Virus record (IMG/VR): IMGVR_UViG_3300045988_182799
Direction: 5' to 3' (one strand)
DNA length: 64,000 nucleotides
From: a virus
Part shown: positions 135 through 38,640 of the stretch, piece by piece
Layout: the number at the start of each line of letters is the position of its first letter
Position numbering within the stretch: position 1 is the first letter of the stretch
Notes under the pieces: generated by a model
Database searches by the model: none
What the model saw: only the letters and a program-made list of their open reading frames with translations
What the model was told of the DNA's origin: nothing
Program-made: the position numbers and the translations under genes

Positions 135-210
135 TGGTGGAAATAGAGGGATTCGAACCCTCGACCCCCTGCTTGCAAAGCAGGTGCTCTCCCAGCTGAG
201 CTATATCCCC
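135..210 (-). tRNA. tRNA-Ala(UGC): tRNA-Ala (anticodon UGC)
   Basis: Reverse complement reads GGGGATATAGCTCAGCTGGGAGAGCACCTGCTTTGCAAGCAGGGGGTCGAGGGTTCGAATCCCTCTATTTCCACCA. It has a 7-bp acceptor stem, GTTCGAATC T-loop, anticodon loop TTTGCAA and an encoded CCA. Confidence 0.85.
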
Positions 211-240
211 ATGATGGCGGGGCATCCCCGCCGGACAGTT

Positions 241-633
241 TTAGGTGTACTGGAAGTCGCCGTACTGCTTGACCTCGCGCTCCAGGTGGAGCGGAATGGT
301 CTTGGTGCTTCGCTGCGTGATGTCGCTACGTGCCACCAGAGTCTCGCTTACGCCTGCCGCCTGAAGAACTTCAAACAGATTGGAAGGGCCTGTACCAGCA
401 TAGCCCGCCGTCAGTCCGTTGACACGCATTGTAAACCCATGCAGATGCGGTGCCAGGCCAGAAATGAAATCGAGTTCAACAATGACCTCGTCACTCTTAT
501 CGTTCACACGTTTGACTGAGATAGCACGGATGTTCTGGCTCCCGAAGGTCTCAATCAGTTTCTTGGCTGCCGCTGCGGTTTCAATCGTGGATGTACCTTC
601 TACATTGATAATTGCCTGCTCCATTGGAATCAT
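241..633 (-). CDS. hypothetical protein (130 aa) between tRNA-Ala and tRNA-Thr
   Basis: Intact ORF with a strong RBS (GAAAGGAGAT) immediately upstream of the ATG. No recognisable motif. Confidence 0.55.
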   Translation of the reverse strand: MIPMEQAIINVEGTSTIETAAAAKKLIETFGSQNIRAISVKRVNDKSDEVIVELDFISGLAPHLHGFTMRVNGLTAGYAGTGPSNLFEVLQAAGVSETLVARSDITQRSTKTIPLHLEREVKQYGDFQYT

Positions 634-825
634 CTCCTTTCTACTTCAAGTTGTCATGCACTGTGGCAGATAACGCTCTGCACTGCGAGGCTTTACGTTG
701 CCCATTCGTGTTCGGTTCCGGCTACGACGACTTCCGTAAGGACTTAGCCAACCGCCAACAGGTGCATGCCCCCGTTGGAAGCTTCTTGGGCGGATTCTCA
801 AAGAGCGCGTCGCCCAATCGGACCG

Positions 826-901
826 TGGAGCTTAGTGGCAGATTCGAACTGCCCGCCTGCACATTACGAGTGTGCCGCTCTGCCTAATGAGCTAACCAAG
901 C
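826..901 (-). tRNA. tRNA-Thr(CGU): tRNA-Thr (anticodon CGU)
   Basis: Reverse complement GCTTGGTTAGCTCATTAGGCAGAGCGGCACACTCGTAATGTGCAGGCGGGCAGTTCGAATCTGCCACTAAGCTCCA folds as a 76-nt cloverleaf with anticodon loop CTCGTAA. The acceptor stem has one G-U pair. Confidence 0.75.
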
Positions 902-1187
902 ATGGCAGGATGTTTTATGCTTGTTATCATCCCAAATCAGGGCAGCCAACCCTGCATCAAGCACCATCCGGCAGCCACGCCGATGGATTCTGTATTGTAC
1001 CCTCTCCGCCGTTTTCCGGTCTCATTCGCGACTGATACTGGGACTTTCGGATACTCTCAGGCACAGCACCTGTTTGCCGATTCTTTTAGAGGCTGTCCAT
1101 TGGCATTCGGACAGCGGACCACAAGTGGACCATGCTCGCTTTATTTAGTGTCGTGCGTACGGTGACAGCGACGGTGGAGCGGGCAGC

Positions 1188-1262
1188 GGGATTCATTTCT
1201 ATTCACGCCACCCATGTGGGCAGCGACAATTGCTATACCCCGCGTGGTGGGTCACGTCTGGC
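1188..1262 (-). pseudogene. decayed tRNA-like remnant
   Basis: Reverse complement begins CGCGGGGTATAGCAATTG, nearly identical to the 5' end of the tRNA-Met at 2870-2943, and ends ...GAATCCCGCTGCCCGCTCCA. It has acceptor-like termini and a T-loop-like GAATCC, but no foldable anticodon arm. Confidence 0.25.
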
Positions 1263-1279
1263 TTTCGCTTTTGCGGCCT

Positions 1280-1474
1280 TTATTTTGCTTCGCTGTTTAT
1301 GTACCCAAACCAGCAGCTTTCGCAGCCAGCGAACCCCGCGCACCCTTCCTCGTACACGTCATTCCATGGCGGACATCTGAAATTCTTTTCAAAGACTTTT
1401 ACCATGTTCTTTTTGATATCTTCCACGGGTCCGCTGAACTTCATTCCTTTTGTCAATTCTTCAAAAACCGTCAT
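1280..1474 (-). CDS. small hypothetical protein (64 aa)
   Basis: The AT-rich 5' half encodes a Lys-rich peptide (MTVFEELTKGMKFSGPVEDIKKNMVKVFEKNF...). An RBS (GGAAGGAAAG) precedes the ATG, and hairpin element 1 sits just upstream. The C-terminal third is GC-rich and may be read-through. Confidence 0.35.
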   Translation of the reverse strand: MTVFEELTKGMKFSGPVEDIKKNMVKVFEKNFRCPPWNDVYEEGCAGFAGCESCWFGYINSEAK

Positions 1475-1489
1475 TTTTCTTTCCTTCCT

Positions 1490-1514
1490 TCTCGCCGCGT
1501 GGAGGCTACCAGCG
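1490..1514. other. conserved hairpin-loop element, copy 1 (partial)
   Basis: Contains GCCGCGTGGAGGCTACCAGCG, a 15/16 match to the core shared by copies 2-6. The flanking stem is weak. Confidence 0.4.
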
Positions 1515-1523
1515 TAGGGATAT

Positions 1524-1598
1524 TGGAGGAGTATATCGGGGTCGAACCGACGTTATCTGCTTGGAGGGCAGAGGTATTAACCGTTATACGAATACTCC
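1524..1598 (-). tRNA. tRNA-Gly(UCC): tRNA-Gly (anticodon UCC)
   Basis: Reverse complement GGAGTATTCGTATAACGGTTAATACCTCTGCCCTCCAAGCAGATAACGTCGGTTCGACCCCGATATACTCCTCCA. Anticodon loop is CCTCCAA. Confidence 0.85.
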
Positions 1599-2366
1599 AC
1601 AAGATTGCGGGTGAACCCTCATTTAGCCCCGCCATGATGTTCGTTTAGGAGGTAGTCGGCCCCGAACGCCATCTTTACACCACTTGACAATCTTGCGAAT
1701 CTCATCGCTGACTATGCGTGAGAATCCAAGAAAGCGCTTAGGTGTTGGTCAACTTCAAATCTTAGAGCCCTACCGTTACTTCTCTGTCAATTCGGGCAAA
1801 CGGTTTTCGATGGGCTACGTGTGTAAGACTGCGGCTTACTTACCAGCTGCCGTGCAGCAGTCTCGCCTATACGGCTGTGTCGCGTCTGGCTGCGCCCCGG
1901 CTTTACGGGGATGCTCGTACGTCTGCATGCTTGATGGGGCGGGATTTGTTGTTTCCGAACCGTAGTTCGAGAGGAAGCACTCGTCCACACAACTTCCTGG
2001 CCTTTAGGGATACCGCTCACACCGGGAATTGTGATGCGATTCCCACGATTGAAGACTTCGCCATGTCGCGGGTATTGACCGCAACAATGTTGCCCACTGC
2101 TCACCACGAGGAGGTTGTCTTCTGAGCAGTAGCGCGGATTGTGTGGAGCAGTCCGCGCAAGCAGCTTCCGCGTATTCCCTGCTGCTTGAGGGAGCTTGTT
2201 GAGCGTCCGCCGACGCCGTACCCCGGAGGGAACGTCCAAAGGCGTTTTGCAGTACGGAAAAGTTCGGTTTAGAGCCATGAACTGGGCCAAGGACTGCTTA
2301 CCTTGTCTGGTTTGCCCTCCAGATTGGGTTGAGAGCATTCGTCAGCGACTGTAGTAATCGTTGTCC

Positions 2367-2400
2367 ACCACCCGCCGCGTGGAGGCTGTCTCATGGGTGG
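2367..2400. other. conserved hairpin-loop element, copy 2
   Basis: CCACCC-[GCCGCGTGGAGGCTGTCTCAT]-GGGTGG: a 6-bp stem enclosing the conserved 21-nt loop. Confidence 0.55.
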
Positions 2401-2523
2401 CTGGGCACGTCGGATGTTTCCGGCGTGCCCAGATAGGCGCTACCTATCGTGTCGTTCTAAGGCGGGAGCTGCCCGCCATCAGGTTTACCTGTGCATCGGA
2501 TTATCCCTTTCACTTATGCGGCC

Positions 2524-2624
2524 TGTCGGACGTAATTAGTGCATAGGCGTTCTCCTTTGTTCAGATTTTGACATCGGACGCGGTAATTACTGCATCGGAG
2601 TGCCCTCCCTGTTAGATTTCGACC
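2524..2624. repeat. two tandem degenerate ~50-nt repeats inside the ncRNA candidate
   Basis: Unit 1 is TGTCGGACGTAATTAGTGCATAGGCGTTCTCCTTTGTTCAGATTTTGACA. Unit 2 is CATCGGACGCGGTAATTACTGCATCGGAGTGCCCTCCCTGTTAGATTTCGACC. Aligned by eye at roughly 70% identity. Confidence 0.5.
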
Positions 2625-2758
2625 TGTTTAACGTCCGTGTCAGGACGTGTTCTGGATGGGTGGTGTCACACCACCGTGTTCCGTGCTTACGCGTCGCACC
2701 TGTACTCCACTATTACGCCTTATCGCGCGATTGACGTGTTCCCTTGTACTACACCCAG

Positions 2759-2835
2759 TGGCGACTCGTGCCGGACTCGAACCGGCGACCTCCAGCGTGA
2801 CAGGCTGGCGTTCTAACCATCTGAACTAACGAGCC
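2759..2835 (-). tRNA. tRNA-Asp(GUC): tRNA-Asp (anticodon GUC)
   Basis: Reverse complement GGCTCGTTAGTTCAGATGGTTAGAACGCCAGCCTGTCACGCTGGAGGTCGCCGGTTCGAGTCCGGCACGAGTCGCCA. Anticodon loop is CTGTCAC. Confidence 0.85.
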
Positions 2836-2869
2836 ATATATGACCGATTTAGCGTCGCGGCCGAGACGA

Positions 2870-2943
2870 TGGATACGGGGATGGGACTTGAACCCACAAC
2901 CACCAGCGTATGAGGCTGGTAAGCTACCATTGCTATACCCCGT
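2870..2943 (-). tRNA. tRNA-Met(CAU): tRNA-Met/Ile2 (anticodon CAU)
   Basis: Reverse complement ACGGGGTATAGCAATGGTAGCTTACCAGCCTCATACGCTGGTGGTTGTGGGTTCAAGTCCCATCCCCGTATCCA. Anticodon loop is CTCATAC. Initiator, elongator or lysidine-Ile identity cannot be decided by eye. Confidence 0.8.
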
Positions 2944-2992
2944 GTCAATAACAAGACATTGGCCGCAAGAACCTTCAAAACTTGCGTTGTCC

Positions 2993-3027
2993 ATCCCTCG
3001 CCACGCGGAGGCTGTCTTGTGAGGGAT
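2993..3027. other. conserved hairpin-loop element, copy 3
   Basis: ATCCCTC-[GCCACGCGGAGGCTGTCTTGT]-GAGGGAT: a 7-bp perfect stem with a 21-nt loop. Confidence 0.55.
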
Positions 3028-3204
3028 TCTCGGAGATTGCGCAAGGATGTGTAGAACTATACTGGTGTAGTATGATGTGCTGCAAGCAGCTACAATGCAC
3101 ATTCTCCGAGGTTGTTATTACCGTCTATCAAGTGAGGGTATGTAGCACTATAGTAGTTGTGATGTGTGTCGGGATGACACTTACAACACTTGATATTCGG
3201 TATA

Positions 3205-3280
3205 TGGCGGGTCGTACAGGGCTCGAACCTGTGACATCTTGATTAACAGTCAAGCGCTCTGCCGACTGAGCTAACGACCC
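3205..3280 (-). tRNA. tRNA-Asn(GUU): tRNA-Asn (anticodon GUU)
   Basis: Reverse complement GGGTCGTTAGCTCAGTCGGCAGAGCGCTTGACTGTTAATCAAGATGTCACAGGTTCGAGCCCTGTACGACCCGCCA. Anticodon loop is CTGTTAA. Confidence 0.85.
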
Positions 3281-3324
3281 AGAAATAAGACATTTGCCAC
3301 GGGGAGCTCAATACCCGTGTTACC

Positions 3325-3357
3325 GTCACCGCCGCGAGGAGGCTGTCTTATGGTGAC
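3325..3357. other. conserved hairpin-loop element, copy 4
   Basis: GTCACC-[GCCGCGAGGAGGCTGTCTTAT]-GGTGAC: a 6-bp perfect stem with a 21-nt loop. Confidence 0.55.
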
Positions 3358-3450
3358 ATAGCCCGCAAGATGTGTGTATAGCATCGTATCAAGAAGTTAC
3401 GATTCATCAAGCGGGATTTTGGATTTCAACGGAGGAACGATGAAAACCAA

Positions 3451-3526
3451 TGGAGCTTCCGGTGGGACTCGAACCCACAACCTACTGATTACAAGACAGT
3501 TGCTCCGCCTGTTGAGCCACAGAAGC
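3451..3526 (-). tRNA. tRNA-Thr(UGU): tRNA-Thr (anticodon UGU)
   Basis: Reverse complement GCTTCTGTGGCTCAACAGGCGGAGCAACTGTCTTGTAATCAGTAGGTTGTGGGTTCGAGTCCCACCGGAAGCTCCA. Anticodon loop is CTTGTAA; the anticodon stem has one non-WC pair at its base. Confidence 0.75.
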
Positions 3527-3621: not shown

Positions 3622-4308
3622 CTATATTTTGCGAATCTGCAAGTCACTGACATCTGCAATGTCTCGGTTTTCTTTCGTGACATCCTTTACCGCGCGTTTC
3701 TTTGACCAGAGAACACTCAGGACGCGATTGCGAAGGTTGTCGTCCTCGATAGTGGATGTCACTTTTACGATTTCTGACTCGCTCAAGTAGACTGTTCCAC
3801 CCTGCTGAATCATGGTCGGATACCCGTTATCACTTCTCAGGACCTTTTTATCAAGGCTATCGTAGGCGTATATCGCGTCGATAAGAAGTTCGGCCGCGAT
3901 TCCGTCCAGCTGTTCTTCCGTGATACCCTGGAAGACGAGCCAGCGGCGCATGAACGAGTCATCCGGGATACTGTCACTGTAAAGAGAGAACAGAGGAGAT
4001 ACCAGTTTGTTGCTCGAATAGCGCTCATGCTCTTCATCGACATTCAGGTTGTCCTGCCAAAGCTTCAGCATCAAGCCGTCGCCGTAGTAGACGAACGTGT
4101 CGTGAAAGAACCCGGACGAGCACACCTTGATATGGTCGATGTTCGCAACTTCCTCACGGTGGCAGAGTACAAAGCGCGTGCCTTCACTCTTGCCGTAGGT
4201 CTCATCGTCCCACTTGACCGTGACCCGTTCCAGCACAAACCTGTCGTTGAGGAGCTTCAGAACTGCTTTGATGGGAAATACTCGCCAGTCCATCAGATGT
4301 TTCTCCAT
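3622..4308 (-). CDS. hypothetical protein (228 aa), last gene of the AAA/zinc-ribbon/nuclease operon
   Basis: Intact ORF overlapping the upstream gene by 16 nt. No recognised motif. Confidence 0.55.
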   Translation of the reverse strand: MEKHLMDWRVFPIKAVLKLLNDRFVLERVTVKWDDETYGKSEGTRFVLCHREEVANIDHIKVCSSGFFHDTFVYYGDGLMLKLWQDNLNVDEEHERYSSNKLVSPLFSLYSDSIPDDSFMRRWLVFQGITEEQLDGIAAELLIDAIYAYDSLDKKVLRSDNGYPTMIQQGGTVYLSESEIVKVTSTIEDDNLRNRVLSVLWSKKRAVKDVTKENRDIADVSDLQIRKI

Positions 4309-4736
4309 TCCTTTGCTATCGGGTCGTACTCGGCCACTTCTTTTTTCGTAACCTTACCGTCCTTTTTATACAGCGTGACGCGCTGGATATAGTTGGCGGC
4401 ATTGGTATCAAGTCGGCGCATGGCTTCGGCAGAAGAGCTCGTCGTAGTGAGACTACGATAAGTCCCGCCGGAGCCCATGACGTCAGGCTCATAGTACCCA
4501 GTCTCGTAGTAGACTGCTATATCCTGTTCGTTAGGAGAAGCGGCATCCAGGATGACCTTGGAGCTTTCCTTGTTGCTACCCGCATAGGAGTTGCGGATGA
4601 TGCGAGCACCACGGTCATTCCCCTGCTGTTCATAGGCTTCGGCAATGAACTCAACGTAGGTCTTGAACTTCTGCTCGTCGCCGTCTCGATGTGCTTCAAT
4701 GAGCTTTCCGAGTGTAACTACGCCAACCACATTCAT
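4293..4736 (-). CDS. hypothetical protein (147 aa)
   Basis: Intact ORF in the operon. No recognised motif. Confidence 0.55.
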   Translation of the reverse strand: MNVVGVVTLGKLIEAHRDGDEQKFKTYVEFIAEAYEQQGNDRGARIIRNSYAGSNKESSKVILDAASPNEQDIAVYYETGYYEPDVMGSGGTYRSLTTTSSSAEAMRRLDTNAANYIQRVTLYKKDGKVTKKEVAEYDPIAKEWRNI

Positions 4737-4812
4737 TGCTTTTACTCCTCTCTTGAACTGTCTACATTATACCATTTTTGGAGTTCCGACTCGTACTGTG
4801 TAGACCAATGAT

Positions 4813-5487
4813 TCATAGATTCTTAACAAACTTACGCGTTTTTACAGGAATGAACCTGAAATGTCCAGTCTTATCTTGTTCGACTCTCCACTTCCACATG
4901 TGTCCCTGCATCCGTTCAGAATACAGCATCTGCTCGGTCGGTAAAAGCAGCCCTATGCCGTAGTATTTCGTAAGAGGTCGGCCTTTTTCGTGGTTTTCAG
5001 CAGCACGAGGAAAGGGGCGTTTTTCCTGCTTTAATTTGTATCCCGCATCGAGCAGTTCTGTGGCATAGAGCGCTGCATTTACTCGATGAAATACATATAG
5101 CATTTGGGTGCTTGAGAAGTAATAGAAGATACAGTTGGCGTTTTTATAAAGCCACCCATCTGAGTGATGGAGCGTTGACTCATTGGTGACAGGATTGCAG
5201 TTGATGACATTACCATTTTCATCAAATAGATAGGAGTCAACGGCCTGTTCCAGGAAGATGTTGCCGGTAGTGTATGTATCTGTTTTAGCATCGAGCGTTA
5301 CCGTGCGGCCATCTTTGCGATGAATCAGGAAGTCAATATCCTGTTCTTGATACGTTTTGATGCTTCTCACATCTTCGTAGCTCTCAAAGCTCAACCTTCC
5401 CAATTCGCAGCTCTTTTTTACGTAGTCAATTGCCACCTGTTCTCCGAGTTTTCCGACCGCAAGCTGGTCTTTCATGTTATAAGCCAA
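4813..5487 (-). CDS. PD-(D/E)xK-fold nuclease-like protein (YraN/Hjc-like N-terminal domain)
   Basis: N-terminus GKLGEQVAIDYV...QDIDFLIHRKDGRTVTLDAKTD matches the GxxGE...(E/D)IDLI...(D/E)xK pattern of the YraN/restriction-endonuclease-like fold. The C-terminal 120 aa are uncharacterised. Confidence 0.55.
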   Translation of the reverse strand: MAYNMKDQLAVGKLGEQVAIDYVKKSCELGRLSFESYEDVRSIKTYQEQDIDFLIHRKDGRTVTLDAKTDTYTTGNIFLEQAVDSYLFDENGNVINCNPVTNESTLHHSDGWLYKNANCIFYYFSSTQMLYVFHRVNAALYATELLDAGYKLKQEKRPFPRAAENHEKGRPLTKYYGIGLLLPTEQMLYSERMQGHMWKWRVEQDKTGHFRFIPVKTRKFVKNL

Positions 5488-5493
5488 GAAGTA

Positions 5494-6234
5494 TCACCTC
5501 CGCACTTTGCGGCAGGCGGGGCACTTAGGACCATACTTGCATACGGTAAAGAGCAACGGCGTCCATTCTTCGTCCTTGCCATAGCCGCAATCGGGACATA
5601 CCAAAGCAATGCGTTCACCGCTTCCGGCGGTCAGTTCATCGGGCCGAAACTTATTGGCGGTCGGATGCCACATAGCTGCAATCTGAGGGTATCCAACGCT
5701 GATGATAGGCTTCGTCGTGCATTTGCGAATTCGCTTCATCCGGTTGTGAGAAGCATTCAACCTGGCGCATTGCGGGCAGCCCGTATGATTCACGCCGCTG
5801 CCGCAAGCGAAAGCCAGGAGCGGATGCCACTCTCCGTTTTGACCATAGCCGCAGGTCTTGCAGACAAGATAGACATGCAGACCGCTGCCGGATGTGATTT
5901 GGTCAGGCTGGATGGTATTTAGCGTAGGATGCCACTGTTCGCCAATTTCAGGATGAACTGTAGCTACATCATTCACACCTTTGACCACGATTCGTCCAGC
6001 ACAAACCGGACAGCCGCCTTTTGTACGACAGACAGAAGAAAGCACCGGCCGCCATTCACCGTTTTTTCCGTATCCACACCGTGGACAAATCAAGGCAATG
6101 CGACGGCCGCTTCCACACGTGATTTCATCAGGACCACAGTCATTGGCAGTCGGGTGCCACATGGAAGCAATCTCAGGATGTTCTTCCGCTACCGTGCCGC
6201 GAGGCTCATAGAGCTTAATCTCAAATTCACGCAT
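5494..6234 (-). CDS. protein made of three tandem zinc-ribbon repeats (WHPT.N...GSG...CxxCGYG.NGEW...GCPxC)
   Basis: Three roughly 80-aa repeats each carry the W-H-P-T-x-N, GSG, C-x2-C-GYG and C-P-x-C signatures, i.e. 12 Cys in four-Cys clusters. The start overlaps the AAA ATPase stop by 8 nt. Confidence 0.7.
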   Translation of the reverse strand: MREFEIKLYEPRGTVAEEHPEIASMWHPTANDCGPDEITCGSGRRIALICPRCGYGKNGEWRPVLSSVCRTKGGCPVCAGRIVVKGVNDVATVHPEIGEQWHPTLNTIQPDQITSGSGLHVYLVCKTCGYGQNGEWHPLLAFACGSGVNHTGCPQCARLNASHNRMKRIRKCTTKPIISVGYPQIAAMWHPTANKFRPDELTAGSGERIALVCPDCGYGKDEEWTPLLFTVCKYGPKCPACRKVRR

Positions 6235-7138
6235 CCTGGTTCTCCTTCTCTTGCTGTTCGATGACCCAGCTTACAATATGGTCCGTGCAAGCTTTCGTTA
6301 CATTGCTGGGCGTATAATTGTGGTCAATGTGAGAGAGCAGGTCTTCAATTTCTTTCTTGCTCGCTGTATAGCCAACCGAAATGAAGAACTTCTCGCATAA
6401 GTCATGCGCAGACTGAGTATCCAGCATGCGAACACGATGAAGGAAGCTGAACCGACGGAACAGTGCAGCGTCAAGCTGGTCTTCCCTGTTCGTGGTTCCG
6501 ATAAGAATAACGTCATTGGGCAGCCGGTCAAGTTCCTGCATCAGAGCAATCGTCACGCGGCTCATCTCTGCTACATCGTCTCTGCCGCCGCGCTTCATGC
6601 CGATAGCATCGATTTCGTCGAGGCACAACACACAGGGGCTGCGTGTAGCATAGTCAAAGACCAGACCAATGTTCTGCTGTGTCTTGCCAAGAGCCGAGCT
6701 GATAAGACCGGAAAATTTGAGATATACGAACGGCAGGTCTGCTTTGTGGGCAATGTATCTTGCCAGTTCGGTTTTACCAGTTCCAGGCTCACCGCTCAGG
6801 AGCAAAGAACTGGTATAGTGAACGCCCATTTCTTTGAGTTTGAGGGACGCTTTTCTCGTTTTGAGAATCTTTTCGATGACTGCTTTCTCCGATTCACGAA
6901 TCAGGAATCTCTGCTCCGGGAAATCAGATACATCTTCTGCCACCAAAAGGCCCTGCATGTTGAACGGCAATTCAATGAATCGCGGTTCAGCATTGTTGAG
7001 CTTTGCCAGGCAGTTCGTCTTGAATTGCTCATCCCTCGCAGCGGTGATACTGTTCAGAATGATTTTTGCTTGCATCTGTGCTTTGCGAATGTCGCCTTCT
7101 GCTACATAGCGAAGGAGCATGCGGTTGTTATCATTCAT
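6227..7138 (-). CDS. classical AAA ATPase (single AAA domain)
   Basis: Walker A LSGEPGTGKTELA, Walker B VLCLDEIDAIG, sensor-1 IGTTN and the arginine-finger region DAALFRRF. An N-terminal ~100 aa domain is of unknown function. Confidence 0.85.
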   Translation of the reverse strand: MNDNNRMLLRYVAEGDIRKAQMQAKIILNSITAARDEQFKTNCLAKLNNAEPRFIELPFNMQGLLVAEDVSDFPEQRFLIRESEKAVIEKILKTRKASLKLKEMGVHYTSSLLLSGEPGTGKTELARYIAHKADLPFVYLKFSGLISSALGKTQQNIGLVFDYATRSPCVLCLDEIDAIGMKRGGRDDVAEMSRVTIALMQELDRLPNDVILIGTTNREDQLDAALFRRFSFLHRVRMLDTQSAHDLCEKFFISVGYTASKKEIEDLLSHIDHNYTPSNVTKACTDHIVSWVIEQQEKENQDA

Positions 7139-7195
7139 GGTTTATTTACCTCTATAAATGAAAAGACCCACCAAACGGCAGGTCTTGATTCTTTG

Positions 7196-7873
7196 TTATT
7201 TATTTGCAAAGTAGGTGTCTGTGTCAGCTCTCGCGGCTCTCGCCTCAATATCAGCTTCGTTCAGATACCGAACGCTTTTGAATGTGTAGTTGGTATCGCC
7301 CTTTGTGCGAACATAGATGCCGCGCTTTGCGTATGTCAGTCCAGGCGTCATATCGCTGTCAGCTGTAGTCAGCAGTTTGATAATCTGATGCTCACCTGCA
7401 TCATCAACCACGCAAAGACTCACATCCGCATTGCCGTCACATGGGTAATCTTCCGGCAGCTTCACTTCGTAATCCACCACTACGAGTTCCGGGTTTTCGA
7501 TGCAATCTCGCAGCTTATCAAGAGCTGATTCTTCAGTTCGCAGTACAGAAAGAGAATTACTGAGCGCAATGGTGTTGCTGATGTAATCTTCATTTTCTGT
7601 TTCGGTAGTGATTTTAGTGATGCGCATTTCAATGTCATGCCATCGCCCATCGGTCAAAGAGCCATTTGAAACTGTTCCCCAGTCGCCGAGAGCGATAAGG
7701 TTATTGTTCTCGCCTCGCACCGGTTCTGTTTCCATACTGGTTTGAGCTGGAAGGCCTAGCGTTTCGCTGCTTTCAGCCGTTGCCACAGGGAAATCGGCGG
7801 GCAGCGTGCTGACGGGATAGCAGGCAGTCAAGGCAACAGCAAGCGCCGGAATAATCAAAAGCAGCTTTCTCAT
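7196..7873 (-). CDS. lipoprotein (225 aa)
   Basis: Signal peptide MRKLLLIIPALAVALTAC with a lipobox Cys. ATGA overlap with the upstream HTH gene suggests translational coupling. Confidence 0.65.
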   Translation of the reverse strand: MRKLLLIIPALAVALTACYPVSTLPADFPVATAESSETLGLPAQTSMETEPVRGENNNLIALGDWGTVSNGSLTDGRWHDIEMRITKITTETENEDYISNTIALSNSLSVLRTEESALDKLRDCIENPELVVVDYEVKLPEDYPCDGNADVSLCVVDDAGEHQIIKLLTTADSDMTPGLTYAKRGIYVRTKGDTNYTFKSVRYLNEADIEARAARADTDTYFANK

Positions 7874-8394
7874 TGTTCCTTCGCCGCCTTCTTTGTTTTC
7901 TTTCTTCCCCTTTTACGGTGGATTCCAGCTTTGTGCATGATGTCGTATCCACATGTGGTACAGAAACCATACTCCTTAGCAAGTGCCTGAATTGACTTCT
8001 GCGGGTTCTCTCTGACTGCTTGGATATACCGTTCCTCTCTTTTCAGGCGTTCTTTCTTTGCCTTTGTCATCACATCAGAATCCCGCTGGCAGGTATATTT
8101 CGGGTCTACCTGCTTGATGACGCTATAAATCGTTGCGCGGTTCATGTTGTATTCTTTCGCCAGCTCAACGGCCGTTACACCCTTGCTGTACTTGCGAGCG
8201 ATTTCTTTGTCTCGTTGTTTCTTCCATTTGTGGAAGTCCATAGAGCGTTCGTTACGACTCTCTTCACGAGATACTCTATAGCAGATATGGGTTGATACAT
8301 GATGCTTTGCGGCTGCGTCTTTGATAGACATACCACTCTTCAAGTCCTCGACAATGAGTCGGTTTCTTTCTGACATAGCTTCTTTGTCAATCAA
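7870..8394 (-). CDS. DNA-binding protein with three helix-turn-helix-like segments
   Basis: Repeated segments (SIKDAAAKHHVS..., VTAVELAKEYNMNRATIYSVIKQ, SIQALAKEYGFCTTCGY) resemble sigma70 region-4 / Mor-type HTH. First gene of the operon, behind promoter a. Confidence 0.6.
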   Translation of the reverse strand: MIDKEAMSERNRLIVEDLKSGMSIKDAAAKHHVSTHICYRVSREESRNERSMDFHKWKKQRDKEIARKYSKGVTAVELAKEYNMNRATIYSVIKQVDPKYTCQRDSDVMTKAKKERLKREERYIQAVRENPQKSIQALAKEYGFCTTCGYDIMHKAGIHRKRGRKKTKKAAKEQ

Positions 8395-8482
8395 TGTTGA
8401 GTCCTCCTTGCAAATAAAAAAGCAGGCTCTTAAAAGAACCTGCTTTCGTGGTCGTTAATACACTTTTTGGTCTACAATATTC

Positions 8483-8510
8483 AGTTTACTCAATTCGCAC
8501 AAACGCGCAA
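8483..8510 (-). promoter_or_regulatory. promoter a of the conserved-spacer family
   Basis: Minus strand TTGCGC-gttTGTGCGAATTGag-TAAACT. Confidence 0.5.
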
Positions 8511-8530
8511 GAAGGCAACATGAAACGGTT

Positions 8531-9635: not shown

Positions 9636-11069
9636 TTACATCGTCGGACTTTGCGGCAGCCACTGCTGCGGATAAGAACGAAGCAGATTCTTCGGCACAC
9701 AATCATTCAGTGCAGAGTTCTCAGCAAGTGCCATGTCGATGATGTAGTAATCATCACCGTTGCGCATCACATCAACACTCCACTGCCCTGTCAGCTCTAC
9801 GTGCGGGATAACCTTCTTCAGCTCATCCAGAACAATCTGGACACTCTCCTTGTAGCGCTTTTCCAGCACATCCTCGTGCATCTGGTAGATAACGTAGTCG
9901 TGCCGTTCCTGCGGACTGCTCACTTCCTGGAATTTGCCCTTCATCACATCGCTGCGCCAGTAAGGACTCACTCCGAGAATTGTCTTGGCATCGAAGTCCA
10001 CAAACACGCGGTATTCAGTGTGCAGCGGCAGACCGTTATAGATAGTCGGGTTTCCTTCCTTGTCTTTGATATACTCTCTGACAACCCATTCATTGGTCGT
10101 ATTTGCCCCATAGAAGCAATGTCCATTGGTGGGCGCTGCCATAGAACAGGTCAGGTGGTTCAGAAACAAGAAATACTCGCCTATCTCACGGACCTCTTGC
10201 GGTTCCTGGACATGAGCATTGCGAAACTCGTACTTGGAAGAGTAGGTGCCGGTTTTGATAAAGTAGTCGCCGTCATCGTTCAGATGGAAGATTCTCTTGC
10301 AGTAACGGTTCACAATCGCCTTCGTCACGGGATTCAGCGTCTCAAAGCCGAGTCTCGTGAGTTGGAGCATCGTGATGGGCACATGTAGGAGTTTCGTCTC
10401 CGGCACCTTGAAGAACTTATTACCGTCTAAGCCTTTAACCAACGGCGGCAGCCAGTAGCTCATGGTGTTCGGATTCATTTCGAGCATCTGATATGTGATG
10501 TCATCGAGGTCCAGAATATCGAGGCCCTGGCGGAACATGTGATACTGCATCGCCTTGTTTCGGTCATTTCTCGCATCGAGATACGCCTTGTAGTGGCTGA
10601 GCAGCACCTTGTAAGATGGCTCAGAAATGTCAATCTTCATCAGATTGCCGGTCAGCTGCGGCCGAAGTTCTTCCGGGAACTTCTTGAGGTCCTCATTCGT
10701 AACCGGCGGAAGGATATGCTGGTTAGTAGAATACCGCACGTAATATCCACCACGCTCCGGCTCATAGATGTACATTCTGGTGCCATCCATCAGCTCGGCA
10801 ACAATTTGGTCAATGAGATTGTCCAGCTCTTTCGTAAAAGGCACGCTCTTATCGAGCATTGCCTTTACGGTTGCGGTATCCCACTGGAGAAGATTGTCAG
10901 ACAGTGTCCCACTTTCCAGCACTTGGGTTTTGTAGACATCCTCAAAGGTTTTAAGAGCATCAGGGCTTGTTTTCAGCATCGATGCAAGCTCTTCATAGGA
11001 AAACGGCTCATTTTCTTTCTTAGATAGCATTGCACCGATTTGAGCAAGCATGTCATTGAACTGAGCCAT
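9636..11069 (-). CDS. hypothetical protein (477 aa), possibly with a C-terminal ATP-grasp-like fold
   Basis: The C-terminal region (...FIKTGTYSSKYEF...EYRVFVDFDAKTILGVSPYW...) resembles the ATP-grasp strand pattern. Weak, by-eye only. Confidence 0.55.
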   Translation of the reverse strand: MAQFNDMLAQIGAMLSKKENEPFSYEELASMLKTSPDALKTFEDVYKTQVLESGTLSDNLLQWDTATVKAMLDKSVPFTKELDNLIDQIVAELMDGTRMYIYEPERGGYYVRYSTNQHILPPVTNEDLKKFPEELRPQLTGNLMKIDISEPSYKVLLSHYKAYLDARNDRNKAMQYHMFRQGLDILDLDDITYQMLEMNPNTMSYWLPPLVKGLDGNKFFKVPETKLLHVPITMLQLTRLGFETLNPVTKAIVNRYCKRIFHLNDDGDYFIKTGTYSSKYEFRNAHVQEPQEVREIGEYFLFLNHLTCSMAAPTNGHCFYGANTTNEWVVREYIKDKEGNPTIYNGLPLHTEYRVFVDFDAKTILGVSPYWRSDVMKGKFQEVSSPQERHDYVIYQMHEDVLEKRYKESVQIVLDELKKVIPHVELTGQWSVDVMRNGDDYYIIDMALAENSALNDCVPKNLLRSYPQQWLPQSPTM

Positions 11070-11730: not shown

Positions 11731-12888
11731 TTACGGCTTGCAATACCCGCAAGGTGTATAGCCCTGCTCGATTAGGTCATCGCGGGAACCTGTATAGTCT
11801 TTGCGGTTTGCATCGCTCATTTGAGCTACGGCGGAGCAGTCAGGCTTATGAAATTTCATAGAGTTTGTGTTCAGGACATAGGTACTGACCGTCGTATCCT
11901 TTTGCTGTGACTCCTCGACCTCGACTGTATCGGTGGTAGTGCTTTCTGCCGCCTGGTGATATTCGCCATAAGTGAAAGTGACGTCCTTACCGTCCGATGT
12001 GCAGTAGATGTCTCCCATCTCGTCAGTTCTGAAAACCTCAATGTCTTTGCTCTGGAGCTTTGCCAAAGTGATGTCGTGTGGATGACCATAGCTGTTGTCC
12101 TTGCCACAGGAAATAACAGCATAGGCTGGATTCACTGTGTCGAGGAACGCTTCGGATGTGGAGGTTCGAGAACCATGATGCCCTACCTTCAGAACAGTAG
12201 ATTGGATGTCTTGTCCAGACTGTAGGATAACATCTTCGGCAGGCTCTTCTGCATCACCCGTAAACAAGAATGAGGTTTCTCCATATACGATGCGTAGGAC
12301 AATGGAGGTATTGTTGGTATCATCCGGCACTGAGTTCACGGCGATAACAGTCACTTCGGCATCGCCAAGGGAGAATGTATCCCCTACCGACGGAATCGTA
12401 AGGCCGTTGCCTCTTTCTTCCGCTCGCTGCTTGAAGTTCCGAAAAGCTTTACTGTCGTACTCTGTGACAGGGCAATACGTGACATCAGCCGTCACGGCTT
12501 CGAATGCACCGGAAAGACCTCCGATATGGTCTTCATGGGCGTGCGTGCCAACAACATAATCCAGATGTCCGTCTGTCTCACGTTCCAGAACAGAATATAC
12601 GAGGTCAGAATCATCAACATTGCCACCGTCAATGAGCATCGAATGCCCATCACAGGTAACAAGAGCAGAGTCCGCCTGCCCCACATCAATGAAGTGGATA
12701 GTAAAGCTGCCGTCTTCCGTTACGCCAGCCGTCTGCTCGCTGTCAGAGACAGGACTTTCTGAGACGACCCCGGATACAGGAAGACTACCCGAATCAATCG
12801 GGGTCTGACCACAGCCTGCGAAGCTGAGCGTGAAGAGTGCCGCAACCGCTGCCGCTGCTCTCCGCAAGAATGTGTTTTTGCTTTGCAT
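11731..12888 (-). CDS. lipoprotein with a metallo-beta-lactamase fold (ComEC-C-like) and a C-terminal Ada-type Zn-binding-like domain
   Basis: Signal/lipobox ...LSFAGC. MBL motifs HFIDVGQADS...DGG and VGTHAHEDHIGG. C-terminus KFHKPDCSAVAQMSDANRKDYTGSRDDLIEQGYTPCGYCKP matches the FHxPxC...GYxPCxxCxP pattern of the Ada N-terminal Zn domain. Confidence 0.7.
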   Translation of the reverse strand: MQSKNTFLRRAAAAVAALFTLSFAGCGQTPIDSGSLPVSGVVSESPVSDSEQTAGVTEDGSFTIHFIDVGQADSALVTCDGHSMLIDGGNVDDSDLVYSVLERETDGHLDYVVGTHAHEDHIGGLSGAFEAVTADVTYCPVTEYDSKAFRNFKQRAEERGNGLTIPSVGDTFSLGDAEVTVIAVNSVPDDTNNTSIVLRIVYGETSFLFTGDAEEPAEDVILQSGQDIQSTVLKVGHHGSRTSTSEAFLDTVNPAYAVISCGKDNSYGHPHDITLAKLQSKDIEVFRTDEMGDIYCTSDGKDVTFTYGEYHQAAESTTTDTVEVEESQQKDTTVSTYVLNTNSMKFHKPDCSAVAQMSDANRKDYTGSRDDLIEQGYTPCGYCKP

Positions 12889-13285: not shown

Positions 13286-14059
13286 CTAAGCAGACAGCGT
13301 GGCTCTGACGACATAGCGTTGGTTTGTGGTTTGGTAGTATCCGAACGGATAGCAGGTATACATCACGAGCCGGTCGGTGGTGTCCGAAAGGTCCACAAGA
13401 ATGGTTCCATCATCGGCCACCACAGTGCCCGCGTCTGCCGTTACCGTTCCCGGCCTGGCAGAATCTACCGTATATACGTATTGTCCGTAGTCTGTAGTGA
13501 CCACAAATTCGTCACCAATACTTACGTATTGAAGCAAAGCCAAAGTGCTGTCGTTATGGGAGCAAAGAAGATGACAACCACCGTAGCCTACCTGATAGGA
13601 GCCTGTGTACTGATATACACCGCTGCGGCTGTCGAGGAGAGCTTGGTCATCGCCCCAGATAAGGGAAGCGTTGATACCTACGCTGCTGCATGAGACTGTC
13701 CCGTAGGAAGCGCCATACGTGGCAGGCACCACATCACCCCATACGCTGGTCGTGAGTGGAGCCGGAGTATCTGTAGGGACCGGTGTTGGTGCTTCTGTCG
13801 GTTCAGGCGTCTGTGTAGGAGTAGGCTCTGGTGCAGCTGTTGGTTTCGACAAAGGAGCATGAGGTGTGGGTTCCGGGATGCTGTCGGTGCTTAGATAAAT
13901 CGCATCATTCGCTGTCTCAGCCGTTGCCGCTGATTCCGTTGTGCTGGCAAAAGAGTCTGGTGGTACTGATACGGGAGTAGATGCACTACTCGCGCAAGCT
14001 GTGGCAAAGGTCAGTACGCCTACTGCCACAGCAGTTATCACTGCTTTTGTCCGTCTCAT
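13286..14059 (-). CDS. sortase-family transpeptidase-like protein with a Pro/Thr-rich linker
   Basis: N-terminal signal plus lipobox (TFATAC), PT-rich linker, catalytic-like LVMYTCYPF (TLxTC motif), and downstream Arg (YVVRATL). Confidence 0.55.
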   Translation of the reverse strand: MRRTKAVITAVAVGVLTFATACASSASTPVSVPPDSFASTTESAATAETANDAIYLSTDSIPEPTPHAPLSKPTAAPEPTPTQTPEPTEAPTPVPTDTPAPLTTSVWGDVVPATYGASYGTVSCSSVGINASLIWGDDQALLDSRSGVYQYTGSYQVGYGGCHLLCSHNDSTLALLQYVSIGDEFVVTTDYGQYVYTVDSARPGTVTADAGTVVADDGTILVDLSDTTDRLVMYTCYPFGYYQTTNQRYVVRATLSA

Positions 14060-16944: not shown

Positions 16945-17745
16945 TTAATAGATGTCGTCATAGCTGCCTCCGATTCCGGCCCAAAGAGCTTCATCACTCA
17001 AGTCGTTGCGAGGGCACTTGATAATGCCCGCTTCTCTTAAAATTTGTCTTGCTTCCTTTGGCGTTAAGCCGTATTGCTTGGCGAGATTCGATAGAGACTG
17101 ATTTGGGATAGCTCTGGCTTGTGTAATCAATCGCCTTTTCTTTTCTGTCCAATCGATTGCTAAGCTCTTGTTTTTTGGAGCTGAGAGAGCGGTTCTTTCA
17201 AGGTCTTTTTCGAGGTCTTTTTGGTATTTTTTTGCGGCCGCCTGAATGCCGCTGACCGTCATTCCCCATTTATCAGCAATCTTTTTATAAGACATGCCAC
17301 TGATGTAGTCTTCATATATTTGTTTGTTTCTGGCGTGCTTTTCCTGAACATCTTTCTGGCGATAGAGGCGCGTCTTCGCCAAACCTTCACGCTCTTTTTG
17401 ATACTTTTTCACGATTGACCGAACGCAGCTACTGGTAACGCCCCATTTCTCCGCTATTTTGATGCAAGACGCACCACTTATAAACTCTTCATAAATTTGC
17501 TTGTTTCTGGTATGTTTTGCCTGTGCATTTTTCTGCCAGTCAAGGCGTGTCTTCGTTAAACCATATTTGGGGTCAGAACGTAGAATTTCGACAATTCTAT
17601 AGCAAGAAAGGCTATATTTGTCCGCCAACTCCAAGACACATACACCATCCATATAATCTCTGTAAATGGCGTCATTGCGTTCTTTCAAAGATTCATAGAC
17701 GCCGTTATTCTTTGCCTTCATCATAGTATCGCTGCTTCTCATCAC
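16945..17745 (-). CDS. multi-HTH DNA-binding protein (three tandem Mor/sigma70-region-4-like repeats plus a fourth HTH)
   Basis: Three repeats of RN.QIYE.(F/Y)ISG.S..KIA.KWG.T.S.(V/I)......KKYQK, followed by LSNLAKQYGLTPKEARQIL. Confidence 0.65.
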   Translation of the reverse strand: MMRSSDTMMKAKNNGVYESLKERNDAIYRDYMDGVCVLELADKYSLSCYRIVEILRSDPKYGLTKTRLDWQKNAQAKHTRNKQIYEEFISGASCIKIAEKWGVTSSCVRSIVKKYQKEREGLAKTRLYRQKDVQEKHARNKQIYEDYISGMSYKKIADKWGMTVSGIQAAAKKYQKDLEKDLERTALSAPKNKSLAIDWTEKKRRLITQARAIPNQSLSNLAKQYGLTPKEARQILREAGIIKCPRNDLSDEALWAGIGGSYDDIY

Positions 17746-22040: not shown

Positions 22041-22460
22041 TCACGTCATTGCAATACATTTCTTTTCAACCCGGACCCACTTCTCCGTACCCCTGTCATA
22101 CTCCAGCACGTCTTTGGCAACCACTGTGCTTCCCTCGATATATTCCAGAATTTGCCGCACACGCATGGGACGTTTCGCATCCTGTGCTATCCGTAGCGCT
22201 GCATCTCTGTACTCAACTGTGTATGCAGGCTCGTAGGTTACATACGGGCAGCCATCGGGTTGTGTCTGACGACTCAGCTCAAAGCGCGACCGGACGTAGC
22301 CGTTGTGCAGGGCATTACGGATGGCGCAAGCACTTTTTCTTTCGCCACTCTGTTCAAAGGTTTGTGCAATTTCCTCCACACACCGACAAAAATGCGTGGC
22401 ATCTTGGCTGTGTTTTGCGAAAATCAGTTTTCGAATCAGCAGTGCTTCATCTTGACTCAC
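22041..22460 (-). CDS. hypothetical protein (139 aa)
   Basis: Intact ORF adjacent to the NTase. Confidence 0.55.
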   Translation of the reverse strand: MSQDEALLIRKLIFAKHSQDATHFCRCVEEIAQTFEQSGERKSACAIRNALHNGYVRSRFELSRQTQPDGCPYVTYEPAYTVEYRDAALRIAQDAKRPMRVRQILEYIEGSTVVAKDVLEYDRGTEKWVRVEKKCIAMT

Positions 22461-37270: not shown

Positions 37271-37771
37271 TCACAGTGCAGCCAGATAGTGAATCGCCAT
37301 CTTTGCAAACCCGATAGCAGATACAAAGCACCATCCTGCTTTTCCAGCCCAGATAACCTTTGTATAGATGGGTAATACCTTTCGGACCGGCTCCAATTTC
37401 CCGAATGCAAGAGGAATTGCGGATACCATCAGCAGCGAAATGTCAAACGCTAAACAAACAAACACAGTTAAACAGTAGTTCAGCATGAGTTGAGCTTCGA
37501 CCTTATTGACTTCAATTAAGCGCAAAGCCAACAAAGCAAATGCCGTTGAAATCACACAGCTAATGACAAGGATTCGTACCGTATGGTTCAGAGTATCCTC
37601 GGGTGATAGGTATTTTCTTTTGCCGCAGCAATAGGTTACTTCTTGGAAGGCTTTACGCCCAAAATACAAGTTATAAACACCATTTACTGCGAAAAGGATA
37701 GCTGTTATGGAGAACAGCGCCACTCTGCAAATAGCAACGATACCCATAGGAATCAAAAGGAGAACTTGCAC
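37271..37771 (-). CDS. polytopic membrane protein (166 aa, ~5 TM)
   Basis: Hydrophobic profile. The downstream small ORF 37096-37260 is a possible coupled peptide. Confidence 0.55.
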   Translation of the reverse strand: MQVLLLIPMGIVAICRVALFSITAILFAVNGVYNLYFGRKAFQEVTYCCGKRKYLSPEDTLNHTVRILVISCVISTAFALLALRLIEVNKVEAQLMLNYCLTVFVCLAFDISLLMVSAIPLAFGKLEPVRKVLPIYTKVIWAGKAGWCFVSAIGFAKMAIHYLAAL

Positions 37772-38640
37772 TCACGGCGCTCGCGGCCATTGCCGCACCA
37801 ATAGTGCCGCCAGGTGGGAGCCTTACCGTTCGCTTCCTTCTTGTAACGCTCCATCAGATAATGGCCCACCACAAAGGTCTTGATATTGACTTTCTTGGTC
37901 TGGCCCTTGAACGTAAAGACAGGACGTTCGTCCTTTTTCGGGCTGTCCAGACGAATCTCCGCGCCTTTGCTGGCAAGGTAGTAGGCACACAGCATTGCGA
38001 GACGGACATAGGGCGTGCCTTCGCCGTAAACAGACGGGATAGCGTCCAGCGTTTCAGGAATAGTGATGTCATCTTTATCGCGGGTCGAAGATGCCTTTTC
38101 AATGTACTGTTTCGTGCTGCGAGTCGCCTCCGTCAAGCTCTGACCCTCCTTAATCCAAGCGGGAAGGGACAGGAACGCGAAGTTCTCCTTCTCGTTCTGG
38201 ACGGGGCCGACAAGGACGATGCCAACGAAGGTGTCATCCGTCTTTGTATCGAACTCGATATGCACGAACATGCCGCAGTAGTCCACGCTGTTGTACAGAG
38301 GCACATAGAAGTTCTTGAACGGCAGGCGCTCCAGCACCTCGCGATGGAGGGTGAGGTCATCGGTATCCATCAGCAGTTCCAGAAAATCCTTGCCGAAATC
38401 GTAGATGACCTTGGTCTGATTCCAGTTGGCGATGGTGTAGCACGGGAAAATCTGGGCAGCCAGCACCTTTTCAAAGCCAGGCTGCTGCATCTGCTGGGCA
38501 ACACGCAGGCACTGAAGCGTAGCGCCCTTGGTGAATTCGTCCAGCGTCTTGCCGCAGGGGTCCTCAAAATCGAAGCCGGTACGGGTCGAGCGAGTAACGG
38601 CATTGGCGGTGAGTGCGATACGAACCTGTTCAGAAGTCAT
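37753..38640 (-). CDS. hypothetical protein (295 aa)
   Basis: Intact ORF with strong RBS ATTTTGGAGGATATTT. Confidence 0.6.
   Translation of the reverse strand: MTSEQVRIALTANAVTRSTRTGFDFEDPCGKTLDEFTKGATLQCLRVAQQMQQPGFEKVLAAQIFPCYTIANWNQTKVIYDFGKDFLELLMDTDDLTLHREVLERLPFKNFYVPLYNSVDYCGMFVHIEFDTKTDDTFVGIVLVGPVQNEKENFAFLSLPAWIKEGQSLTEATRSTKQYIEKASSTRDKDDITIPETLDAIPSVYGEGTPYVRLAMLCAYYLASKGAEIRLDSPKKDERPVFTFKGQTKKVNIKTFVVGHYLMERYKKEANGKAPTWRHYWCGNGRERRECKFSF

Follow-up and report, generated by a model that had tools for sequence, protein, structure and literature searches.

Independent modules or one machine? An IetA-like ATPase, DUF4379 zinc ribbons and a PD-(D/E)xK nuclease in a variable locus of a probable conjugative megaplasmid

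Does the grouping of an ATPase, a putative nucleic-acid sensor and a nuclease in one string of genes reveal a dedicated antagonistic machine, or can such a string arise from modules that merely share an address? The question is raised by positions 3622-8510 of IMG/VR virus record IMGVR_UViG_3300045988_182799, analysed here as a single stretch of 64,000 nucleotides (64 kb; hereafter, the window), where seven open reading frames (ORFs; g1 to g7) follow each other head-to-tail on the minus strand. A first-pass annotation, made from the sequence alone, described these genes as one translationally coupled operon and likened its central trio, an AAA ATPase (g3), a triple zinc-ribbon protein (g4) and a PD-(D/E)xK nuclease (g5), to defence systems directed against phages or plasmids. 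All seven genes are real; more than 100 public loci contain homologues, with 33-98% amino acid identity, in an unchanged order. The explanation that we favour, with a probability of about one half, is that the locus belongs to the accessory, hypervariable part of a conjugative megaplasmid of the Hodor type and consists of independent modules, with no dedicated three-protein machine.

The idea that the trio might recur beyond this element was not borne out: a gene-neighbourhood check found the combination of ATPase, zinc-ribbon gene (hereafter, zinc gene) and nuclease only in this family. With each species represented by one genome, a scan recovered 20 loci encoding the ATPase family (43-55% identity) in genomes of Oscillospiraceae, Christensenella and other Clostridia, and in none of the 20 did a relative of g5, of the zinc gene or of g6 lie within 8 kb of the ATPase. 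No flanking families were shared among these loci beyond near-identical locus pairs, and the flanks, judged by eye, are typical of prophages (Dam methylase, phosphoesterase and small terminase subunit). Solitary copies of the ATPase gene are likewise present in a 233-kb phage-like contig (L006), a temperate phage (L054) and a 190-kb sortase-bearing contig (L056). Relatives of g5, for their part, occur without the ATPase (L037/38, L050, L051 and L114-132), beside a topoisomerase IA-like gene, near a Dam methylase gene or alone, and no ATPase was found within 6 kb of the short, nuclease-only relatives. The two genes come closer in L052, L053 and L111, where an ATPase (51% identical) and a g5 relative (32%) belong to divergent operons and are separated by 3.6 kb, the latter gene being located 3' of an HD_5-domain gene and 5' of a gene for a 640-aa (amino acid) protein with a helix-turn-helix (HTH) domain. 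The HD protein of L111 was considered as a MOBH relaxase and rejected as such, its matches being confined to HD_5/HD-GYP-type models. The L052-type element and the window share a VirB4/TraG-type ATPase-DUF5697 gene pair as well as an AcrVA2-like gene; therefore, the L052 type is probably a deep relative rather than an independent occurrence. This arrangement shows that the ATPase and g5 are, in all likelihood, old residents of the plasmid family which need not be co-transcribed.

Within the element family, the shared order in several sub-lineages is one to three HTH genes, in some cases a lipoprotein gene, the ATPase gene, in some cases the zinc gene, then g5 and g6, with or without g7. Across sub-lineages, identity to the copies in the window ranges from 58% to 98% for the ATPase and from 33% to 96% for g5. 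Among the 79 related loci, that is, the IMG/VR loci retrieved via the ATPase, 62 encode the ATPase, the zinc gene and g5, 16 the ATPase and g5 with the zinc gene absent, and one the ATPase only. The spacer between the ATPase gene and g5 is particularly prone to change. Two loci with 81% nucleotide identity, L067 and L007, differ by a 1.9-kb block that comprises an HTH gene and the zinc gene and fits exactly between the stop of the ATPase gene and the start of g5; the HTH gene of L067 (3963-5231) is an additional multi-HTH gene of ~420 aa, situated between the ATPase and zinc genes and gained or lost together with the latter. In L110 (95% identical to L067), a 2.2-kb deletion has taken the 3' end of the ATPase gene, so that the protein ends after Walker B, together with the HTH and zinc genes, leaving g5 intact, and in L075 (97% identical to L067) the whole ATPase gene is gone, with g5 intact and the zinc gene retained. 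An IS200/IS605 element encoding a 556-aa TnpB and a 147-aa TnpA (L031, 3569-5694) separates the ATPase gene from g5 in another locus, in which a 3' fragment of the ATPase gene is duplicated and a 515-aa IscB-like RRXRR/HNH protein is encoded 3' of g5 (6967-8514). Finally, three in-frame deletions at microhomologies (EQR and MHYL, for example), which arose independently in different sub-lineages, have joined the ATPase to the middle of g5 with the loss of every g5 catalytic residue (P0034, P0027 and P0015), P0034 being located on a 291-kb scaffold. A 402-aa product in L004 (6001-7209), the C-terminus of which resembles residues 106-216 of g5, had been considered as a Rosetta-stone fusion or an ATPase split by an endonuclease; both were rejected because the sequences show this product to be one of the three microhomology deletions, in which the end of the ATPase has been lost along with the catalytic half of g5. 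Thus, every single-gene loss is found in nature, which argues against strict mutual dependence, and the existence of an intact nuclease without a functional ATPase speaks against the view of g5 as a toxin that the ATPase restrains.

The assignment of g3 as a classical AAA ATPase was upheld (PF00004, E 9e-29), with intact Walker A (GEPGTGKT), Walker B (DEID), sensor-1 (N217) and arginine finger (RRF) motifs; residues G116-T123, D174/E175, N217 and R228/R229 are invariant among 12 aligned family members, and the pore loop (SALG) is non-aromatic. The best match in PDB is the D2 domain of CDC48/VCP (1e-35) and that among phage families is phrog_3757 (3e-66), whereas PADLOC identifies g3 as IetA (5.7e-61). 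The top NCBIfam match is IteA, at 190 bits versus an equivalog cutoff of 510, and g3 is 36.6% identical to the annotated IteA of a genuine IteA-IteS pair. IetAS couples an AAA ATPase antitoxin with an S8 serine-protease toxin and was originally recognised as a toxin-antitoxin pair that stabilises plasmids; it was later shown to be active against phages, by a mechanism that is still unsolved (PMC13069673). No protease domain, of the IetS/S8 type or otherwise, was detected in g1 to g7 with Pfam, PADLOC or NCBIfam models, and tblastn with a real IteS sequence (E<=1) found no homologue in the 64-kb window. Therefore, g3 appears to be an orphan IetA-like ATPase and, as judged from its genomic surroundings, is to be placed outside the definition of an Iet system, given that the partner protease is lacking in the window. 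The link to defence drawn in the first-pass annotation holds in so far as the best match of g3 is a conflict-system protein and the locus is hypervariable; it does not extend to g4 and g5, neither of which has a PADLOC model, so that g3 alone has a match among the defence-system profiles of PADLOC 2.0.

The nuclease assignment of g5 was also supported. The protein has a restriction-endonuclease-like fold with an intact predicted active site (E16, D52 and D66-x-K68), and its AlphaFold model is a single confident fold, with a predicted local distance difference test score (pLDDT) of 93.4 and a predicted template modelling score (pTM) of 0.87. An exhaustive HMMER search delineated a family of 112 representative clusters; an alignment of 23 of the 112 shows E16, D50, D52, K68, D70 and E80 to be invariant, with D or E at position 66, and reveals conserved residues in the C-terminal half (G111-W112, A163, N165 and G179). 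No match was found in Pfam, PHROGs, PADLOC or NCBIfam, nor among INPHARED or PLSDB proteins. The nearest folds are I-Ssp6803I, RecU, Hjc and the catalytic domains of the NhoI/Eco15I/DpnI type, and matches in a viral structure library were solely to uncharacterised small phage nucleases. The proposed affinity to YraN has to be abandoned, as YraN/UPF0102 is neither a family profile match nor the closest structure. The 120-aa extension attributed to this nuclease does exist as a C-terminal part; it is no loose tail, being conserved in the family and covered by the high whole-protein pTM. On sequence and predicted structure, g5 is best regarded as a family of its own, without a Pfam, PHROG or NCBIfam model.

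The protein encoded by g4 indeed consists of three tandem zinc ribbons, which we assign to DUF4379 (PF14311; E 1.8e-24 over three stretches). The repeats are visible already in the DNA, at spacings of 264 and 225 nucleotides (nt), and fit the PF14311 pattern W..P..N...GS...CxxCG..W......CPxC, the cysteines of which are conserved in the family alignment. The closest homologues contain DUF4379 repeats alone, two or three each; relatives are mostly of this repeat-only kind, and one (P0295) bears an REase_MTES domain. DUF4379/CapR-like arrays of three to five repeats of ~60 aa, followed by a Vsr/EDxHD nuclease, define a new family of homing endonucleases that resides in group II introns of phages, and have been proposed to act as DNA-binding specificity modules (PMC12350094), and in Marseilleviridae four DUF4379 repeats are joined to a restriction-endonuclease domain (PMC5513546). 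In the window, as in both other sub-lineages that carry a zinc gene, this gene is the direct neighbour of g5, and it is so even in the L067 type, in which another gene intervenes between the zinc and ATPase genes. Because the zinc gene always abuts g5, and the ribosome-binding site of g5 lies inside g4, it is plausible that the two proteins form a two-part 'DNA reader plus nuclease'. Both the position and the catalytic residues of g5 are kept in lineages without the zinc gene.

The arrangement of the seven genes (Table 1) accords only in part with the overlap-chained operon initially described. Overlaps join g1 to g2 (4 nt, ATGA), g3 to g4 (8 nt) and g6 to g7 (16 nt), but gaps of 57, 6 and 76 nt separate g2 from g3, g4 from g5 and g5 from g6, respectively; the Shine-Dalgarno sequence of g5 (GGAGG) resides within the last codons of g4. 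A ribosome-binding site (AAGGAGG) precedes the TTG start of g1 by 8 nt. As for the promoter assumed upstream of g1 ('promoter a'), no sigma-70-like site was detected at 8395-8510 and no recurring motif was found upstream of g1. The extended -10 box TGGTATAAT in front of g6 was read by eye and was not listed by the consensus promoter scan because it has no -35 hexamer. A single coupled seven-gene operon is doubtful, because two of the gaps hold a terminator-like hairpin and this extended -10 box, respectively; the signals suggest up to three putative transcription units, g1-g2, g3-g5 and g6-g7.

Table 1. Coordinates of the genes and predicted signals of the locus and of other features of the window
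Feature	Position	Strand	Description
g1	7870-8394	minus	174 aa, multi-HTH Mor-type DNA-binding protein, TTG start
g2	7196-7873	minus	225 aa, predicted lipoprotein
g3	6227-7138	minus	303 aa, classical AAA ATPase, IetA-like orphan
g4	5494-6234	minus	246 aa, three tandem DUF4379 treble-clef zinc ribbons, facultative
g5	4813-5487	minus	224 aa, PD-(D/E)xK nuclease, unannotated family, TTG start
g6	4293-4736	minus	147 aa, conserved, own promoter-like element upstream
g7	3622-4308	minus	228 aa, overlaps g6
Terminator-like hairpin	8447-8418	minus	13-bp stem and T-run, just 5' of the g1 ribosome-binding site
Terminator-like hairpin	7186-7163	minus	10-bp stem and T-rich tail, in the g2-g3 gap
TGGTATAAT	4774-4766	minus	extended -10 promoter-like box in the g5-g6 gap, 30 nt 5' of the g6 ATG
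VirB4-like conjugation ATPase	59880-62552	minus	NCBIfam conju_CD1110, 5.4e-75; Pfam TraG P-loop
DUF5697	59005-59622	minus	adjoins the VirB4-like gene
Sortase	13286-14059	minus	
UvrD-like helicase	17742-20570	minus	with PDDEXK_3 region
g1 paralogue	16945-17745	minus	266 aa, Mor-type
g6 paralogue	22041-22460	minus	28% identity
Seven tRNA genes	135-3526	minus	Ala, Thr, Gly, Asp, Met, Asn, Thr; directly 3' of g7
phrog_12834 protein	9636-11069	minus	477 aa, upstream of the locus, no Pfam match
Metallo-beta-lactamase-fold protein	11731-12888	minus	upstream of the locus
AcrVA2-like homologue	37753-38640	minus	28% identity, 1.6e-29, versus L052 6024-7112

The genes that flank the central trio are conserved to varying degrees. 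A Pfam scan bore out the multi-HTH nature of g1 (HTH_28, 7.7e-9; HTH_23, 1.1e-8, over two stretches; Mor, 7.7e-8); the protein also matches a PHROG annotated as 'late transcriptional activator' (6e-11), and genes of the g1 type, one to three in number, precede the ATPase gene in all related loci. The window additionally encodes a paralogue of g1. The lipoprotein call for g2 was likewise sound, a signal peptide with the lipobox LTAC being readable from the sequence (MRKLLLIIPALAVALTAC...); its homologue, 56% identical, is confined to the L001-type sub-lineage and absent from the L004, L007, L031 and L067 types. Homologues of g6 (55-62% identical) are located 3' of g5 in most sub-lineages and 4.6 kb off in L007, an identical g6 protein is encoded on 588 public contigs, the longest of 371,842 bp, and a distant paralogue resides elsewhere in the window. 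Weak matches of g6 to the N-termini of IetA and phrog_3757 raised the possibility that it is a paralogue of the ATPase N-domain; a profile-profile comparison with hhalign gave a probability of only 0.2, and this candidate was discarded. The AF2 model of g6 was unusable (pLDDT 47). Homologues of g7 (42-43% identical) accompany g6, at times at a distance of ~2 kb, and the g6-g7 pair is duplicated in tandem in L034/L035. Neither g2 nor g7 has a family match in Pfam, PHROG, PADLOC or NCBIfam.

What kind of element hosts this locus? The filing in IMG/VR, together with PHROG 'terminase' and 'tail' matches, evoked a jumbo phage, a candidate that we rejected upon finding that the 'terminase' is the VirB4-like ATPase and the 'tail' a metallo-beta-lactamase-fold protein. 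No phage hallmarks (terminase, capsid or tail) were found among the ~40 window ORFs scanned, and no nucleotide match was found in INPHARED. The close relatives are human-gut contigs, with IMG/VR records of up to 389 kb. Recently (2026), conjugative megaplasmids named 'Hodor' have been described from the human gut, with sizes of 211-389 kb and GC contents of 47.1% or 44.6%; they encode multiple sortases, VirB4/VirD4, a separate helicase, an HD relaxase and Rep_3/ParAB and contain TnpB insertions, and their records sit mostly in viral databases (PMC12934698). The description covers 38 curated and 1,625 draft genomes. That paper makes no mention of an AAA protein, of defence genes or of a gene string such as the one described here. 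The window and its relatives resemble these plasmids in human-gut origin, the size of the relatives (211-389 kb), a GC content of ~47-48%, the sortase, the VirB4-like ATPase, the helicase, TnpB insertions and the filing in viral databases. The window thus probably fits a Hodor conjugative megaplasmid better than a phage.

Other genes of the window deserve mention. The seven tRNA genes next to g7 represent unusual plasmid cargo, and the window also encodes a flotillin. The L001 homologue (641-1798) of the metallo-beta-lactamase-fold protein displays a faint match to the Anti-Pycsar protein Apyc1. The phrog_12834 protein is 73-79% identical in sub-lineages beyond the window's own group, and relatives of it are encoded a few kilobases from the stand-alone ATPase in three bacterial genome loci (L138, L139 and L141), a possible association. 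The AcrVA2-like gene is located directly 3' of the ATPase gene in L052-type elements, which hints at a shared pool of genes of the anti-defence type; a literature search found no link between AcrVA2 and plasmid leading regions.

Taken as a set of independent modules, the locus could function along the following lines. The host would be a human-gut member of the Bacillota and the element a plasmid of which the record has been misfiled as a virus. The first module, g1-g2, would comprise a Mor-type HTH regulator and a lipoprotein. The second would be g3, an orphan hexameric AAA ATPase of the IetA type, with proteins as its probable substrates. Members of its family occur as stand-alone genes in clostridial prophages, conjugative elements and megaplasmids; g3 would operate without a dedicated adjacent partner and might neutralise or remodel a factor of the host or of a rival, such as a protease toxin resembling IetS, in the way IetA does in IetAS. 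The third module, g4-g5, would be built around a minimal PD-(D/E)xK DNA endonuclease, upstream of which some lineages appear to have gained a translationally linked DUF4379 array; by analogy with the single-chain DUF4379-nuclease homing and restriction enzymes, the array may serve as a DNA-binding specificity subunit. The g6-g7 genes would constitute a further pair, expressed from a promoter of their own. The identities of the genes and domains, the intactness of the catalytic motifs, the distribution of the genes and their polymorphic gain and loss are observed; all biochemical activities and substrates, as well as the independence of g3 from g4-g5, we infer.

Several observations weigh against this account. 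The ATPase gene and g5 are adjacent on the same strand in every sampled sub-lineage (58-74% ATPase identity) while the other neighbours change, and the rare g5 family is again encountered less than 4 kb from the ATPase in the diverged L052 and L111, a recurrence exceeding that expected of independent genes. The deletion variants are metagenome assemblies, some of low coverage, and could represent non-viable minority genomes. With regard to the partnership of g4 and g5, no DUF4379 gene lies beside g5 relatives outside the clade, the pairing being lineage-specific, and the role of g3 as an antitoxin mimic is pure conjecture. As to the element itself, Rep_3, ParAB, VirD4 and a relaxase were not found among the ~40 window ORFs scanned, and membership in the Hodor type, judged from shared features, is no more than likely.

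The same adjacency invites the alternative that g3 and g5, with g4 where present, constitute a plasmid conflict system for defence, exclusion of rivals or counter-defence, in which the IetA-like ATPase would sense or gate, the PD-(D/E)xK effector would replace the IetS protease and the zinc array would be an optional DNA sensor or specificity factor. The tight g3-g4 and g4-g5 junctions are consistent with such a system, as are the side-by-side position of the ATPase gene and g5 in ~78 of the 79 clade loci, their proximity (within 4 kb) in L052/L111, the defence or toxin-antitoxin nature of the closest ATPase family, the intactness of the catalytic residues of both enzymes throughout and the frequent gain and loss, which is typical of defence loci. 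It would nonetheless have to be reconciled with the absence of the pairing from all 20 genome loci and from three further mobile-element contexts of the ATPase, the solitary occurrence of g5 relatives, the divergent operons of L052/L111, the toleration of IS605 between the ATPase gene and g5 and the failure of g4 and g5 to match PADLOC models, and the intact nucleases of L075 and L110 speak against the ATPase keeping a toxin in check. We regard a conflict system as possible but rather doubtful; an 'Iet' variant proper, whereby an ATPase-gated nuclease replaces the protease, with the zinc array as an optional reader, and excludes rival plasmids or phages, seems unlikely. In a related reading, likewise improbable, the stand-alone IetA-like ATPases of clostridial mobile elements would be antitoxin mimics disarming defences of the IetS type.

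Two further explanations concern the nuclease. RecU and Hjc are among its top fold matches, distant relatives lie beside a topoisomerase IA-like gene and a Dam methylase gene, and in L111 its gene is situated between the HD-domain gene and that for the 640-aa HTH protein, with a VirB4/TraG-type ATPase seen in the matching locus L052, all of which could suggest a housekeeping RecU/Hjc-type junction resolvase involved in plasmid replication, multimer resolution or processing of conjugative DNA, with the ATPase taking part in the same transaction. Yet, the catalytic half of g5 is deleted in several natural genomes, one of them the 291-kb scaffold, so that g5 can be dispensed with, the ATPase is a member of the classical clade of protein remodellers and not of a DNA-acting AAA+ clade, and the HD protein does not match the MOBH relaxase, which makes a resolvase quite improbable. 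Alternatively, g4-g5 might be a selfish, free-standing split homing-endonuclease cassette, to which the ATPase gene is merely an insertion neighbour, in keeping with the recognised homing-endonuclease family that combines a DUF4379-like array with a nuclease (PMC12350094), the clean presence or absence of the zinc gene at one intergenic site and the attraction of IS605 and the IscB-like gene to the same site. Such a cassette is difficult to reconcile with the retention of g5 in zinc-less lineages, which indicates that the nuclease is not the mobile part, with the fact that g5 is not of the Vsr/EDxHD type, with the status of g5 and the ATPase as old residents common to the diverged L052-type elements and with the presence of only one copy each of g4 and g5 in the 64-kb window; we consider it the least probable of the explanations weighed here.

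If the locus is indeed a stretch of independent modules, a string of 'ATPase + sensor + nuclease' genes can form by chance in a variable accessory locus, and such a pattern of genes does not by itself make a strong case for a system. In that case, ~110 clusters of small PD-(D/E)xK nucleases are without a model in Pfam, PHROGs, NCBIfam and PADLOC, and an IetA-like ATPase lacking its protease is common among the mobile elements of Clostridia from the gut. These 'viral' IMG/VR contigs are, in addition, probably conjugative megaplasmids. Should g3 and g5 prove to form a conflict system, the locus would be a novel case of effector exchange in the Iet family, of which little is understood, and would offer a handle on the control that IetA-type ATPases exert over their partners.

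The identity of g5 to the minimal PD-(D/E)xK nucleases that it resembles in fold (I-Ssp6803I, RecU, Hjc and NhoI/Eco15I/DpnI) is only 7-13%, and g5 possesses an additional conserved beta-rich C-terminal part (A163-x-N165, G179). The g4-g5 pair shares with DUF4379-nuclease fusions three treble-clef repeats of ~60 aa placed directly 5' of a small nuclease with a restriction-endonuclease fold, and the number of repeats varies among g4 relatives (two or three); the DUF4379-Vsr/EDxHD enzymes are, however, single polypeptides, whereas g4 and g5 are separate genes, and no Vsr protein is among the fold matches of g5. Finally, the AAA family nearest to g3 is IetA, both are carried by plasmids and the pore loop of IteA (SLLG) is non-aromatic, as is that of g3. 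By contrast, g3 is ~80 aa shorter than IteA (303 versus 387 aa), scores far under the NCBIfam equivalog cutoff and has as its neighbours a zinc-ribbon protein and a nuclease, while members of its family stand alone elsewhere.

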